From a virus (lineage: Duplodnaviria; Heunggongvirae; Uroviricota; Caudoviricetes), in the IMG/VR virus record IMGVR_UViG_3300035696_000002: a stretch of DNA of 64,000 nucleotides. One strand, 5' to 3'. Within the stretch, counting starts at the first letter, position 1. The number at the start of each line of letters is the position of its first letter. The notes under the pieces were generated by a model, which did no database searches, was not told where the DNA came from, and saw only the letters and a list, made by a program, of their open reading frames with translations. Position numbers and translations under genes: made by a program. Of the stretch, positions 7,479-63,843 are shown in pieces.

Positions 7479-10400
7479 TTAGACTCGGCGACCCCAGTGA
7501 TACTCGATGCTGAGGTTTGTACCGCTCTGTGTGCTCAATGCACCACTCGGCCCGGCCCCTTGGAACAACAGGAAGCCGTAGAACGGGTGGGCCTTGAAGA
7601 AGCTCACGCCACTCGCGGGAGCGGGCACAGGTTCCATGCTCCACCAGCCCAACACAGCCCAATACTGGTTCGTGTTGAATGTCTGAGTGAACGGAGAGAC
7701 CGGGCCTGTCGGATACGACGGGGAGAATGCCATAGTCGAGCCGCCGTCGAGCGACAATGACATGGCGTCCACGGACATACCGATGCACTGCGGATCGAAC
7801 GAGCCTGCCGCTGGCGTAGCGACGGGTGCGGTGCTGCTTCCGAGACGAGCATTGTTGATGGTGGTCTGGGAACCGTAATCAAACAGATACACCGGGCCGA
7901 AAGCTGCGGTTGAAAACACAGTGCCGCCGCCTGCGTTGAAAGGCGTGGTGCTGTAGTTGTACCCCTGCTGCACAGTAATGCGGAGGTTCGTGATGCCCAC
8001 CTGACGGGCGAACGTGTAAGCGTAGCCCATGTGTGCACGCCAGAGCGGAGTGATTTGTGTGTAAGAGATGCCGCCGTTGGTGCTCACCTCGAACTTGTAG
8101 CCACGCGACATATTCGCGTTTATGAGGTAGTATGGTGCATCCGAAGACTGACCGCCAACCTGAGAACCGAAGTTCATGAAGCACAGGTCAGAGAAGTTAA
8201 ATGTTGACTGACGTGAGCCGCTGTAGAATTGGAGCATACCCAGAGACGGGGTGTTACCGCCGCTGGCTTGCGTAATGCTCAACTGAATCCAGCGGAAGCT
8301 GCCCGGCGTGCTCGCCGTGAAGGCAACGCCGCGTTTGAAGGCGGAGAATCCCGTTTGCGAGTCGATGGTTGTGAACGGCCCGGACGCACTGGTGTTCGAA
8401 CCTTGCAGCACCCACGTTACAGGTGCCCCGGACACAGTGTTGGACGAGTCGTAGAACAGACGGAAGCTGTATCCGCTGATGAGCGTAGCGGCACCCAGAT
8501 CAATCGTGAGCGAGCCAGTGTTGCCCGCGTTCGACTTCCAGAACCGCTGAGCACTGCCTGCGAATGCCTGCCAGTTTGGGAATCCTGCCTGATCGCCGCT
8601 CGATGTGATGTTCGGGCTGGACGCGGTGTACGGTGTGTACACGTTCGTTGTCGGATCGAAGTTGTTTGCCGTGATGACCATCTGCAACGCAGTTGCATCA
8701 TACGGGTAGTTACCAGTGTCCAGCTTCGGCCACGTGACCTGTGTGTTCCACCCGGTAAGAGGCGTTGTCAACGGTGCAGTCTGTGGCGTCGGGTTGATCG
8801 AAGTTGGAGCCGTAAATGCCACGTTGGACTGATCGGTATCCACGAAGTAGAGCCCAACTGCATTTTGCTCTGCCACAGTGCGGGCGTCAGTCTGGAGGAA
8901 CGTCTGTCCAGCAAACATTGACCACGCGAAACGTGACTTACGGGCGAACTTCGTGTTGCCCCAGCACAGATTGAATGTGAAGAATTCGCTGTTGCCGATG
9001 CTGATGTCGTTTGCCGTTCCAGTGTCGGCAGCCGGGCCGTAACCGCCGTTGTAGTACGCAACGGTCGCGGTGAACTGATTAGTTGAAGCCGAGGCCAGAG
9101 TAACCGTCAACCCATTCAAGAAGGTCGCCGTCGTGAGACCGGACAGGGTGACCTTGTCTCCGGGGTTGAAGTTGTTCGTCGTGGTCAACACGGTAAGGGT
9201 GTTGCCAGAGATCGAAACGTTCGTGATCGTCGCCTTGCTACCCTGACTCGTCCAAGTATCACTGCTATTCGGGCCGAACTGTACCTGCAACCCGTAAGGC
9301 AGCGGGACGTTTGTGTTTGCGGACGGGATGGAGATCGGGTTGTTGAAAGCATCGGCGAAATTGTCCGCCATCTTCCACATGACCTCTGCGGTACCGCTGT
9401 TCGCTGTAGGCCCGTAGTTCGGGTAAGTGAGCTTCGCTGCGAACTGTGCACCGCTCAGACCAGCCGAAAGGACGGTCACGGTCATGCCATTCAGGAACGT
9501 GGCATTCGAGACGCCAGAGAATGTCACATGATCGCCCGCACTGAATGTGTTGGTCGCCTGTACGGTGAGGACGTTCCCAGCAATCTGGATGCTGGTGATC
9601 GACGCGGAGTTACCCACCCATTTGTGGTAGGTCGGCAACCATGCAAAACTCTGAGCACACAGACCGTACAGCGAGTTCCCATTTGGCAGATTTTGCGGTG
9701 GGCTCGTGAGGCCGCTGGTGATGCGGATAAAGTGCATGTAGTTGTCCAGCGTCATAACTGGATACGTCCAGTTCTGAGCGGCGTCGTTGCCGATGAAGCG
9801 GCTGCCGAGATCGCCTTCAGTCCAGCAATCCTTACCAAACGAATTGATGGTGACTCCTGCCATGCTGTTGAGATGCATCAACTGAAGTGTGTTCGGGGCT
9901 CCCCACGTGTACCCCGGTGCCGCCTGATAAAGCGGGGAGTCGCCGAACAGCGTGTACGTTTTGTGGACGTAGAACATGGTACGATCAGCGTTTGTCGCAA
10001 AGTCTTTTGCATGCGTGATCGACACTGGCTCATACGCCGGGTTCGAACTGTTGGTAACGAACGTGTCGCTGCCAGTCCAACCGCTGCCGCCGCCGTAGCT
10101 CCAGAGCGTGGAGGCCGGAACTGGTGTCAAGTTGGCATTGGACGTACCAAGGGTCGTTCCGCTGATGTCCAGAACCCACAAGTTGCCAGCCGTCCAGTTG
10201 CCTTGGATGAGCAGCTTGTTCGTTGCCACATCATGCATGAAAGCGTTGGGCATGTAGAACCAGAAATCCTTGAGGTTGTTGAAGCCCGTCTGTCCAGTGT
10301 TGGTGCCGTACTGGATACCCTGCGTCAAAGTGCCGCTCTGGCTAACTGGGCCATAGGTCGAGTTGTACGAAGGAATCGTCGCCGTGATCTGTGATGTTGA

Positions 10401-62998: not shown

Positions 62999-63072
62999 TG
63001 GCCCCCCGGACAGGATTCAAACCCGCATCGTCGATTTTAGAGACCGCCGCTCTGCCATTGAGCTACCGGGAG
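62999..63072 (-). tRNA. amber suppressor tRNA (CTA), G73
   Basis: GCGGT-CTCTAAA-ATCGA; T-loop TTTGAAT; CCA. Confidence 0.75.
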
Positions 63073-63074
63073 AT

Positions 63075-63154
63075 TGGTGCCGAGGCAACACAGCTTGATC
63101 GCGGAACGAGTGCACCGAAGTGCAAGCCTTGATAACTTGTGTGCTGCCTCGACA
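63075..63154 (-). ncRNA. CCA-ended long-stem RNA without an anticodon or T arm
   Basis: 14-bp terminal stem plus ACCA; internal TGCAC-TTCG-GTGCA hairpin. Confidence 0.6.
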
Positions 63155-63229
63155 TGGAACTCGCGACGGGATTGGAACCCGCAACCCCTCGGTTTAGAAT
63201 CGAGTGCTCTGCCATTGAGCTACGCGAGC
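63155..63229 (-). tRNA. amber suppressor tRNA (CTA), U73
   Basis: CTCGA-TTCTAAA-CCGAG; T-loop TTCCAAT; CCA. Confidence 0.75.
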
Positions 63230-63240
63230 AAAACTAAACT

Positions 63241-63317
63241 TGGTGCACCCAGTGGGATTTGAACCCACGATCCACGTTTTAGAGACATGAGCTTTGATCG
63301 GGCTAAGCTACGGGTGC
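63241..63317 (-). tRNA. amber suppressor tRNA (CTA), A73
   Basis: CATGT-CTCTAAA-ACGTG; TTCAAAT; CCA. Confidence 0.8.
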
Positions 63318-63344: not shown

Positions 63345-63395
63345 TGGTGGGCGGTGAAGACTTTCATCCCCGGTGGTTTCCCACTTTTACCGCCC
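63345..63395 (-). ncRNA. 51-nt mini-tRNA-like RNA, copy 1
   Basis: GGGCGGT-AAAA-GTGG(GAAA)CCAC-C-GGGGAT(GAAA)GTCTTC-ACCGCCC-ACCA. Confidence 0.75.
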
Positions 63396-63396
63396 G

Positions 63397-63445
63397 TGTG
63401 CCCTCAAGAGCATCTTAACCAACTTAACGTGCTCTTGAGAGCATA
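63397..63445. repeat. ~14-bp hairpin spacer
   Basis: TGCCCTCAAGAGCA ... TGCTCTTGAGAGCA. Confidence 0.65.
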
Positions 63446-63448
63446 TCT

Positions 63449-63524
63449 TGGCTCCGGGGGAAGGAATTGAACCTCCATCCCCGAGGCTTTCGCCCCGGTG
63501 CTCTTGCAGTTGAGCTACCCCGGA
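63449..63524 (-). ncRNA. tRNA-like RNA with the anticodon loop replaced by a GAAA tetraloop
   Basis: Acceptor TCCGGGG/CCCCGGA-GCCA; D and T arms present; CCGGGGC-GAAA-GCCTCGG. Confidence 0.75.
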
Positions 63525-63527
63525 ATA

Positions 63528-63601
63528 TGGAGCCCGTTGAAGGAGTTGAACCCCCGACCTCTCCGTTAAAAACGGAGTGCTCTGCACTGAGCTAAACGGG
63601 C
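63528..63601 (-). tRNA. tRNA with a Lys(TTT) anticodon on a Thr-like acceptor
   Basis: CTCCG-TTTTTAA-CGGAG; GCC../..GGC-TCCA; D-loop lacks GG. Confidence 0.7.
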
Positions 63602-63612
63602 ACTTACAAACT

Positions 63613-63756
63613 TGGTGGACGCCTGAGGATTCGAACCTCCGGCTTTCACAGATTACTCACGCGGTACTCGTCGCGACGTTTCCCGTGCTTTCAATCAGCC
63701 TTACCCGGCTCTGTGAAATGCTGTCCGCTTGAAGCGGGCCATAACAGCGTGCGTCC
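63613..63756 (-). ncRNA. 144-nt expanded tRNA-like RNA
   Basis: Acceptor GGACGC/GCGTCC-ACCA; T arm GGAGG-TTCGAAT-CCTC; enlarged D arm; 9-bp stem opening to a ~57-nt branched domain. Confidence 0.7.
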
Positions 63757-63793
63757 GTTATAAAAGACATTCGTCTTTTATTTCATACAAACT

Positions 63794-63843
63794 TGGTGGG
63801 CGGTGATGCCTTCCGGCACCCAGCTTTCGCTGCTTTACCGCCC
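63794..63843 (-). ncRNA. 50-nt mini-tRNA-like RNA, copy 2
   Basis: GGGCGGT-AAAG-CAGC(GAAA)GCTG-GGTGCC(GGAA)GGCATC-ACCGCCC-ACCA. Confidence 0.75.

Follow-up and report, generated by a model that had tools for sequence, protein, structure and literature searches.

Two short genes for CCA-ended, tRNA-like RNAs without an anticodon arm were identified in a 64,000-nucleotide stretch of DNA (the window, i.e., the whole stretch that was analysed) from the Caudoviricetes record IMGVR_UViG_3300035696_000002 of IMG/VR. These mini-tRNAs, named mini-1 (51 nt) and mini-2 (50 nt), are read from the minus strand and lie within an array of tRNA and tRNA-like genes. They are very probably real, selected, non-decoding RNAs derived from tRNA. 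It is likely that they act through the acceptor end, which in both copies has the stem of a bacterial tRNA-Val. Judging from the sequence, they may serve as a decoy or competitor against a host enzyme acting on acceptor ends, although this narrower role is put forward only tentatively. The window corresponds to bases 175749–239748 of a single virus record (G000) of 463,033 bp with a G+C content of 55%, in which 68 tRNA genes and one transfer-messenger RNA (tmRNA) gene were found. The DNA of the locus is present in peat metagenomes.

Fold, conservation, and origin of the mini-tRNAs

Both minis have an identical acceptor stem of 7 bp (GGGCGGU/ACCGCCC), the 5' strand of which is followed by an A-rich linker of 4 nt (AAAA or AAAG, the latter in mini-2) and two hairpins. 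Hairpin 1 (4 bp) reads GUGG-GAAA-CCAC in mini-1 and CAGC-GAAA-GCUG in mini-2, while hairpin 2 (6 bp) reads GGGGAU-GAAA-GUCUUC and GGUGCC-GGAA-GGCAUC, respectively, and is followed by the acceptor 3' strand and ACCA. This three-way junction is the minimum-free-energy structure of both RNAs, with −23.5 kcal/mol for mini-1 (z −2.8; 2 of 200 shuffles as good) and −28.8 kcal/mol for mini-2 (z −4.5; 0 of 200 shuffles as good). The two copies agree in the acceptor, in the GAAA loop, and in ACCA; most hairpin-stem positions differ, and every pair is kept. Neither ARAGORN nor Rfam detected the minis, with 14 tRNAs called in the window, and none of the 4227 Rfam models matched them even at E values up to 10.

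A covariance model built from the two copies gave exactly two matches in the 463-kb genome, mini-2 with 80.6 bits (E 5e-20) and mini-1 with 52.5 bits (E 6e-12), and one match in G001, a 455,708-bp IMG/VR phage. A DNA pattern consisting of the acceptor, AAA, and ACCA returned a 50-nt orthologue in G001 (locus L003), one in a 41-kb fragment, and three further orthologues in metagenome contigs (L018, L022, and L023), the last three all accompanied by CUA and Lys tRNAs. A sixth genome (L159/L160) was reached via a homologue of the 101-amino-acid protein encoded at the head of the operon; its mini has the same acceptor and the linker AGAG, and hence was invisible to the DNA pattern. With the acceptor left free, an interior-only pattern run over the viral collection matched G001 and G002 only. 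The reads of three DNA runs over the locus contained no new mini variants. Pattern matches at L001, L004, L015–L017, L019–L021, and L024, which had neither tRNA neighbours nor the fold, were regarded as chance, and a 42-nt look-alike lying inside an open reading frame (ORF; G000 458800–458841) was dropped.

The alignment comprised seven distinct sequences from six phage genomes. In total, 99.1% of its cells were in standard pairs, and both-side changes were found in 5 of the 17 pairs, which amounts to 5 of the 10 hairpin pairs. The compensatory changes occurred in at least three lineages (L022, G001, and mini-1), with mini-1 contributing most. In the controls, at most 1 of 500 shuffles reached any of the measures, and slid registers paired at 33–71%; RNAalifold independently predicted the same structure. 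The acceptor, A73-CCA, the GAAA loop, and a G·U as the second pair of hairpin 2 were invariant in all seven sequences. Apart from the 3' ACCA, all loops are closed by GAAA, GGAA, GUAA, or GCAA, the lone exception being hairpin 2 of G001 with a 6-nt loop (these caps close hairpin 2 in six of the seven). Of the canonical tRNA traits, the 7-bp acceptor, the discriminator A73, and the encoded CCA are kept throughout, and the anticodon arm with its 7-nt loop and the D-loop/T-loop elbow are missing. The gap between hairpins 1 and 2 is 0–1 nt, leaving no third arm and no anticodon arm, and zero nucleotides separate the acceptor (7 bp) from hairpin 2 (6 bp) on the 3' side. Hairpin 2 can stack on the acceptor, which gives an acceptor/T-type minihelix of ~13 bp with a small side hairpin. 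Of the features that define the minihelix class, the continuous acceptor and T-type helix of ~12 bp followed by NCCA is present, and the T-loop cap is absent.

Between genomes, the mini-2 orthologues are 80–96% identical (70–94% without the acceptor), compared with 65–89% for the adjacent protein gene, 54–81% for the tetraloop tRNA, and 66–90% for tRNA-Lys in these genome pairs. No other element of the array is as well conserved as the mini, and this comparison with neighbouring genes suggests that the mini is under purifying selection. A sequence-only reading of the window had described both elements as covarying copies of a CCA-ended mini-tRNA with neither an anticodon arm nor a T-loop, and had named a covariance model built from the two copies, a comparison with Rfam, and a search for homologues conserving the structure as its checks. 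The description has stood: both RNAs lie where it placed them and lack these loops, their hairpins are rewritten with pairing kept, and the proposed structure was recovered by the minimum-free-energy fold, RNAalifold, and the alignment. No Rfam family was matched, and homologues conserving the structure were found in five other phage contigs. The roles suggested in that reading, as a decoy for acceptor-end toxins or as a substrate or inhibitor of a synthetase or EF-Tu, are plausible. The reading had not noticed the likely derivation of the minis from full-size anticodon-less tRNA-likes, their position behind such genes, or the gene of peptidyl-tRNA hydrolase 2 fold at the operon head.

To assign the acceptor, one genome per prokaryotic species was scanned for GGGCGGU with the D-arm start UAGCUCAG, then ACCGCCC-A. 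Among the matches listed (at least 80 loci), 79 of 80 were tRNA-Val and one was tRNA-Lys; the Val anticodons were UAC (48), GAC (19), and CAC (12), and the matches listed span many phyla, including the peat-typical Acidobacteriota. The likeness to the acceptor of bacterial tRNA-Val(UAC), which the sequence-only reading had pointed out, is supported by these counts. The mini acceptor was present in none of the phage's own 68 tRNAs, among which the tRNA-Val genes have the acceptors GCACUGU or ACGCGGG. The phage therefore combines decoding tRNA-Val genes with altered acceptors and a gene for a non-decoding RNA with a bacterial-type acceptor.

Full-size tRNA-like RNAs with the identical acceptor were found in two relatives (L010/L033 and L026/L027), which had been fetched via the protein and not via the RNA. 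Both have the T-arm GGGGG-UUCAAGU-CCUUC, a normal D-arm, and a non-decoding anticodon region. The L010/L033 RNA (L010 8053–8125; anchor protein 80% identical) is 73 nt long with a 5-nt loop CUUGU, and the L026/L027 RNA (L026 7492–7579; anchor protein 73% identical) is 88 nt long with a 4-bp stem and an irregular 20-nt loop. The 3' half of the T-stem and the acceptor (..CCUUCACCGCCCACCA) are common to the L010/L033 and L026 RNAs and the minis, and hairpin 2 of mini-1 aligns with the T-arm of the full-size L010 relative. Because the acceptor and T-stem are shared and the anticodon regions of these two relatives are non-decoding, the minis appear to be reduced, anticodon-less derivatives of full-size tRNA-likes, the latter being their likely ancestors.

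In five of the six genomes (the window genome, L018, L022, L023, and L159), the mini lies 1–3 nt behind a tetraloop tRNA whose acceptor (GGGCGAG, AGGCGAG, or ACGCGGG) is related to that of the mini. In G001, a tRNA-Lys-like gene separates the tetraloop tRNA (acceptor GCGCGGU) from the mini, which begins 1 nt after the Lys-like gene. In all six genomes, the mini starts 1–3 nt after the preceding gene. This closeness to the preceding CCA and a U-rich trailer after the mini's own CCA resemble the setting in which tRNAs are processed. In the simplest history, the anticodon loop of a tRNA would first have been sealed or distorted, giving a tRNA-like, and the anticodon arm would then have been deleted and the D- and T-loops swapped for tetraloops. 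Across the series, the acceptor/CCA end seems to be the only constant part while the remainder shrinks or varies. The body comparison cannot separate a Val from a Lys ancestor, the core being 0.65–0.82 identical to both. The anticodon tetraloops of the window are CUCG and GAAA; at the same place, the relatives have GCAA, GUUA, or long irregular arms.

Proposed function and rival explanations

A mini would be excised from the array transcript like a tRNA, with an RNase P cut at G1 and trimming of the 3' end to the encoded CCA. It cannot decode and would probably stay largely uncharged, because valyl-tRNA synthetase (ValRS) recognizes its tRNA mainly by the anticodon, with A35 and C36 as the principal identity bases. 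The loops usually attacked by endonucleases are sealed and only ACCA is single-stranded, and the mini is therefore read as a candidate nuclease-hardened display of the host tRNA-Val acceptor/CCA end. Such a copy would compete for or trap a factor that reads acceptor stems, while the phage's own decoding tRNA-Val genes carry different acceptors. The most likely target would be a host tRNA-targeting defence enzyme working on the 3' end: toxSAS pyrophosphokinases, MenT/AbiEii nucleotidyltransferases, or acceptor-cleaving tRNases. Four base pairs of the acceptor guide the choice of tRNAs by FaRel2, a toxSAS (toxic small alarmone synthetase), for which a minihelix on its own is an efficient substrate (PMC11559606), and MenT toxins are reported to extend acceptor ends (PMC10435456). 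Phages answer tRNA-targeting defences with altered tRNAs (PMC12445682; PMC11555353). Hairpins made of an acceptor and a T-arm are cut by RNase P at its canonical site (PMC11143913).

The locus is rich in functions touching the tRNA 3' end (a PTH2-fold protein, tmRNA, and a CCA-adding enzyme), which is taken as context, not proof. The array follows two ORFs of the same orientation and a promoter-like TTGACT. The 101-amino-acid protein encoded at the head of the operon was modelled with AlphaFold (pLDDT, predicted local distance difference test, of 81), and a Foldseek search with the model returned the archaeal and eukaryotic peptidyl-tRNA hydrolase 2 (PTH2) structures 3erj, 2zv3, 1q7s, and 1xty with template modelling (TM) scores of ~0.72–0.78 and probability 1.0, the best score being 0.78 to 3erj and 2zv3. 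Residues D44, E67, P68, D69, G73, and W96 of the protein are invariant. Its 88 homologues were found mostly in large phage contigs beside tmRNA and CUA tRNAs, and many large phage contigs show the succession of tmRNA, PTH2-fold gene, and CUA tRNAs. In addition, the phage encodes a CCA-adding enzyme (G000 461074; E 7e-35). Genes of the alanyl-tRNA synthetase (AlaRS) family, SmpB, EF-Tu, or a class Ia synthetase were not found in the phage genome, and a Pfam search of the other flanking ORFs gave nothing except DUF7178 in an 846-amino-acid ORF. Relatives encode an AlaRS-family (PF01411) protein of ~246–282 amino acids (L026 11931–12318, L033 9674–10411, and L034 9706–10303) a few kb downstream of the array, with the size of a stand-alone fragment and not of a full synthetase; PF01411 had no match in the window genome.

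Several points weigh against action of the minis as acceptor-end decoys. In five of the seven aligned sequences the acceptor was fixed by the DNA pattern; only L159, L010, and L026, reached via the neighbouring protein, give independent evidence that it is invariant. The minis are confined to a sub-clade, and sister phages have full-size or hairpin versions instead. The label 'host-type' is based on the spread of the stem in bacteria. To our knowledge, no toxin specific for the tRNA-Val acceptor has been described, and a substrate decoy would face a very large tRNA pool, requiring tight binding or high abundance. The sequencing runs containing the locus were peat DNA metagenomes only, with no RNA run among them. 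As to the 101-amino-acid protein, its putative PTH2 identity comes from the modelled fold; it had no Pfam hit, and a sequence-profile search against solved structures returned only a spurious repeat match. The gene is also present, and equally conserved, in relatives without minis. Finally, model substrates with a tetraloop in place of the T-loop are cleaved less efficiently by RNase P, sometimes at a shifted position (PMC11143913).

An unlikely alternative is that the mini is an aminoacyl or peptidyl carrier, which would be charged with valine by the host ValRS, or with another amino acid, and would work with the PTH2-fold hydrolase. It would either donate its amino acid in a transfer outside the ribosome or serve as an acceptor on the ribosome without reading a codon. 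The A73 discriminator and the Val-type acceptor are in line with charging, the PTH2-fold gene is co-oriented directly upstream of the array in every relative examined, and the tmRNA gene adjoins it. EF-Tu, peptidyl-tRNA hydrolases, and the peptidyl-transferase centre contact an acceptor/T-type helix, and minihelices can be valylated with low efficiency, as Frugier et al. reportedly found in 1992; both count in favour of a carrier. However, the ValRS determinants A35 and C36 are absent from the mini, as is G3:U70, the phage has none of the synthetase, EF-Tu, and SmpB genes listed above, and conservation of the PTH2-fold gene does not depend on the presence of minis. It is highly improbable that a charged mini is a puromycin-like or tag-less tmRNA-like codon-independent peptidyl acceptor, from which the PTH2-fold hydrolase would release the peptide, emptying stalled or host ribosomes.

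Alternatively, the mini could be a processing or stability element, i.e., a tRNA-shaped cis signal whose released RNA has no function of its own. It would act as a handle for RNase P/Z, fix the 3' terminus of the tRNA-like before it, or protect the transcript. The constant distance of 1–3 nt from the preceding gene in all six genomes agrees with such a role, as do the cleavage-signal function of the t-elements of plant mitochondria (PMC1920247) and the acceptance of hairpin substrates by RNase P (PMC11143913). This role is nevertheless unlikely, for the neighbouring tRNA genes already supply such sites every ~75 nt, and mini-1 comes after a hairpin, not a tRNA. Moreover, a signal would not need a fixed 7-bp stem, discriminator, and GAAA loop amid flanks that are 54–89% identical, and the encoded CCA and the Val-type acceptor would be left unexplained.

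That the minis are decaying relics, i.e., tRNA genes that lost the anticodon arm in a fast-evolving array and are on their way out, is hardly credible: several other truncated or distorted tRNA-likes in the genome and the restriction of the minis to a sub-clade would fit, but their standing as the most conserved array element is hard to reconcile with decay, five pairs show compensatory change with 99% of cells paired, and the loops, instead of eroding, have given way to stable tetraloops (bar the 6-nt loop in G001), with CCA retained. The rest of the probability, beyond the decoy and these three rivals, belongs to something not yet conceived.

Phage tRNA genes are now regarded as spare parts, supplied in place of host tRNAs that defence nucleases have destroyed. 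The minis cannot be such spare parts, since they are unable to read a codon, and nonetheless these non-decoding genes are the best conserved of the array and copy a host-type tRNA-Val acceptor end. If they act through this end, they would rank as the first natural tRNA mimics that copy the acceptor stem only. If so, they would point to an unexplored front of phage–host conflict at the tRNA 3' end, with toxSAS, MenT/AbiEii, GNAT toxins, and CCA-trimming enzymes on the host side and CCA-adding enzymes, PTH2-like hydrolases, and RNA decoys on the phage side. The minis are small, easily made, and testable in vitro, and could serve as probes or inhibitors for acceptor-end enzymes.

Array layout and other short tRNA-like RNAs

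The minus strand is the strand of all genes near the minis. From 63919 to 62999, the array contains the CUCG tetraloop tRNA-like, mini-2, the AU hairpin, the 144-nt tRNA-like, tRNA-Lys(UUU), the GAAA-capped tRNA-like, the 14-bp hairpin, mini-1, and three CUA tRNAs (Table 1).

Table 1. Features of the mini-tRNA array and its surroundings. Positions are those of the window unless G000 (the whole virus record) or L005 is given.
Feature	Position	Strand	Basis
mini-2, 50-nt CCA-ended mini-tRNA; copy with orthologues in five other phage genomes	63843..63794	−	sequence, fold, covariance model
mini-1, 51-nt paralogue, seen only in the window genome	63395..63345	−	sequence, fold, covariance model
Full-size tRNA-like, CUCG tetraloop in place of the anticodon loop	63845..63919	−	ARAGORN 'tRNA-???'; Rfam tRNA 52.6 bits; fold
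Second full-size tRNA-like, anticodon arm a 7-bp stem with GAAA cap	63449..63524	−	ARAGORN, Rfam, fold
Perfect 14-bp hairpin between the GAAA tRNA-like and mini-1	63399..63443	−	fold −26.5 kcal/mol, z −6.9
Small AU-rich hairpin AAAAGAC-GAAU-GUCUUUU, 14 nt after mini-2	63762..63779	−	flank comparison
144-nt ACCA-ended tRNA-like, T-arm and large structured insert, next gene after mini-2	63613..63756	−	sequence, fold
Canonical tRNA-Lys(UUU), member of the conserved array	63528..63601	−	ARAGORN, Rfam
Downstream end of the array	62999..63317	−	ARAGORN, Rfam, fold
216-amino-acid ORF, only its 3' end inside the window, runs off the window edge	63982..64000	−	ORF call
101-amino-acid PTH2-fold gene, heads the operon, ~600 nt past the window end	G000 240359-240664 (L005 5860-6165)	−	AlphaFold + Foldseek
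Phage tmRNA, ~3.3 kb upstream of the minis, beyond the PTH2-fold gene	G000 242851-243196		

The CUCG tetraloop tRNA-like has the acceptor ACGCGGG/CCCGCGU followed by A and ends 1 nt before mini-2; its acceptor resembles that of the phage's own tRNA-Val(UAC). The AU-rich hairpin behind mini-2, which is kept in G001 and L023, may be a weak terminator or processing site; it was not called by a terminator scan. The insert of the 144-nt tRNA-like contains the conserved core GGGAAAC.UCGCGA.GAGUACCGCGU.AGUA. Sequence homologous to this RNA comes after the mini in L022, L023, and L018, and it had no match in Rfam. The downstream end of the array comprises three different tRNAs with the anticodon CUA (amber readers; 63241–63317, 63155–63229, and 62999–63072), the last two of which are separated by a 79-nt RNA consisting of a 13-bp stem and ACCA (63075–63153). 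Amber recoding was considered in view of the three CUA tRNAs and rejected: ORF cover rose no further when TAG was read as sense than when TAA was, and 66 of the 384 long ORFs of the phage genome terminate in TAG.

In G001, the slot of the 79-nt RNA is occupied by a 46-nt three-way-junction mini with the acceptor GGGGCAG/CUGCCCC-ACCA (L003 7745–7790, minus strand), and minis with other acceptors therefore exist. A 45-nt CCA-ended mini with the acceptor GGGCGUG and a single GAAA hairpin was found at L159 4969–5013. The tRNA arrays of the relatives also contain NCCA-ended hairpins of 32–35 nt, i.e., natural minihelices, on the minus strand (L010 8604–8638, L026 7456–7490, L035 6649–6683, L035 8724–8757, and L003 ~8117–8150), two of which have the loop UUAGUA in common. 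Two further CCA-ended tRNA-likes are encoded on the plus strand of the virus record, outside the window and in other arrays: a 62-nt RNA with a true T-arm and G3:U70, the alanine identity mark (G000 307457–307518), and a 57-nt RNA with a T-arm-like hairpin (G000 347088–347144).

Among the full-size tRNAs, the one at L159 6077–6156 has an 8-nt anticodon loop UUCUAGAG, in which ARAGORN reads the 4-base anticodon CUAG. The tRNA-Lys(UUU)-like genes of two relatives, L003 7957–8038 (minus strand) and L018 673–746, have altered anticodon loops: one has A33 in place of U33, and the loop of the other is 6 nt long. These alterations are reminiscent of published loop changes that evade anticodon nucleases.

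Comparison with known RNAs

Literature searches on phage mini-tRNAs, minihelices, tRNA decoys, and tRNA-like RNAs yielded no account of such genes. The genomes of tymoviruses end in valine-accepting tRNA-like structures with an ACCA end, a pseudoknotted acceptor, and a valine anticodon loop. Like the minis, these are virus-encoded mimics of the tRNA-Val acceptor end; however, they are part of a plant RNA virus genome, whereas the mini is a predicted free RNA of 50 nt without an anticodon. The tRNA cluster of phage T4 includes small stable RNAs of ~120–140 nt with no known function, species 1 and 2. Their location in a phage tRNA cluster is shared with the minis, but they are larger and are not CCA-encoded three-way junctions with a fixed acceptor.

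Other tRNA-like small RNAs excised by tRNA-processing enzymes, among them mascRNA (RF01684), are similarly small, non-decoding, and tRNA-shaped, with CCA expected. In contrast to the minis, mascRNA is eukaryotic, forms a full cloverleaf of ~60 nt, and receives its CCA post-transcriptionally. The mascRNA and YrlA (RF02553) models had no match over either mini at E values up to 10, with weak hits on ordinary tRNAs. The t-elements of plant mitochondria (PMC1920247) are tRNA-like structures in transcripts processed by tRNA enzymes. They flank mRNAs, have no sequence conservation, and are not CCA-encoded three-way junctions with a fixed acceptor, whereas the mini is positioned inside a tRNA array, not beside an mRNA end, and is highly conserved in sequence.

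The tRNA-like domain of tmRNA resembles the minis in having an acceptor and T-arm, no anticodon arm, and tRNA-type processing. It differs in its G3:U70 for AlaRS, true T-loop, mRNA-like domain, and SmpB partner. In all mini sequences, the pair 3–70 is G-C, the RNA is only 50 nt long, and the phage has no SmpB.

The full-size tetraloop tRNAs of the same arrays belong to the same operon as the minis, are likewise non-decoding with CCA encoded, and in L010 and L026 have the same acceptor and T-stem; unlike the minis, they keep the D-loop/T-loop elbow and the anticodon stem. Synthetic acceptor-T-arm minihelices are laboratory substrates for RNase P, the CCA-adding enzyme, synthetases, EF-Tu, and toxSAS FaRel2 (PMC11143913, PMC11559606). 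They share with the minis a coaxial helix of 12–13 bp, NCCA, the absence of an anticodon arm, and identity in the acceptor pairs. By contrast, the minis are natural conserved genes with a GNRA cap in place of the T-loop and an extra 4-bp GAAA hairpin, joined via the A-rich linker into a three-way junction. Among known objects, the synthetic acceptor/T-arm minihelix comes closest to the minis; among natural RNAs, the nearest relatives are the tetraloop tRNAs without an anticodon in their own arrays.

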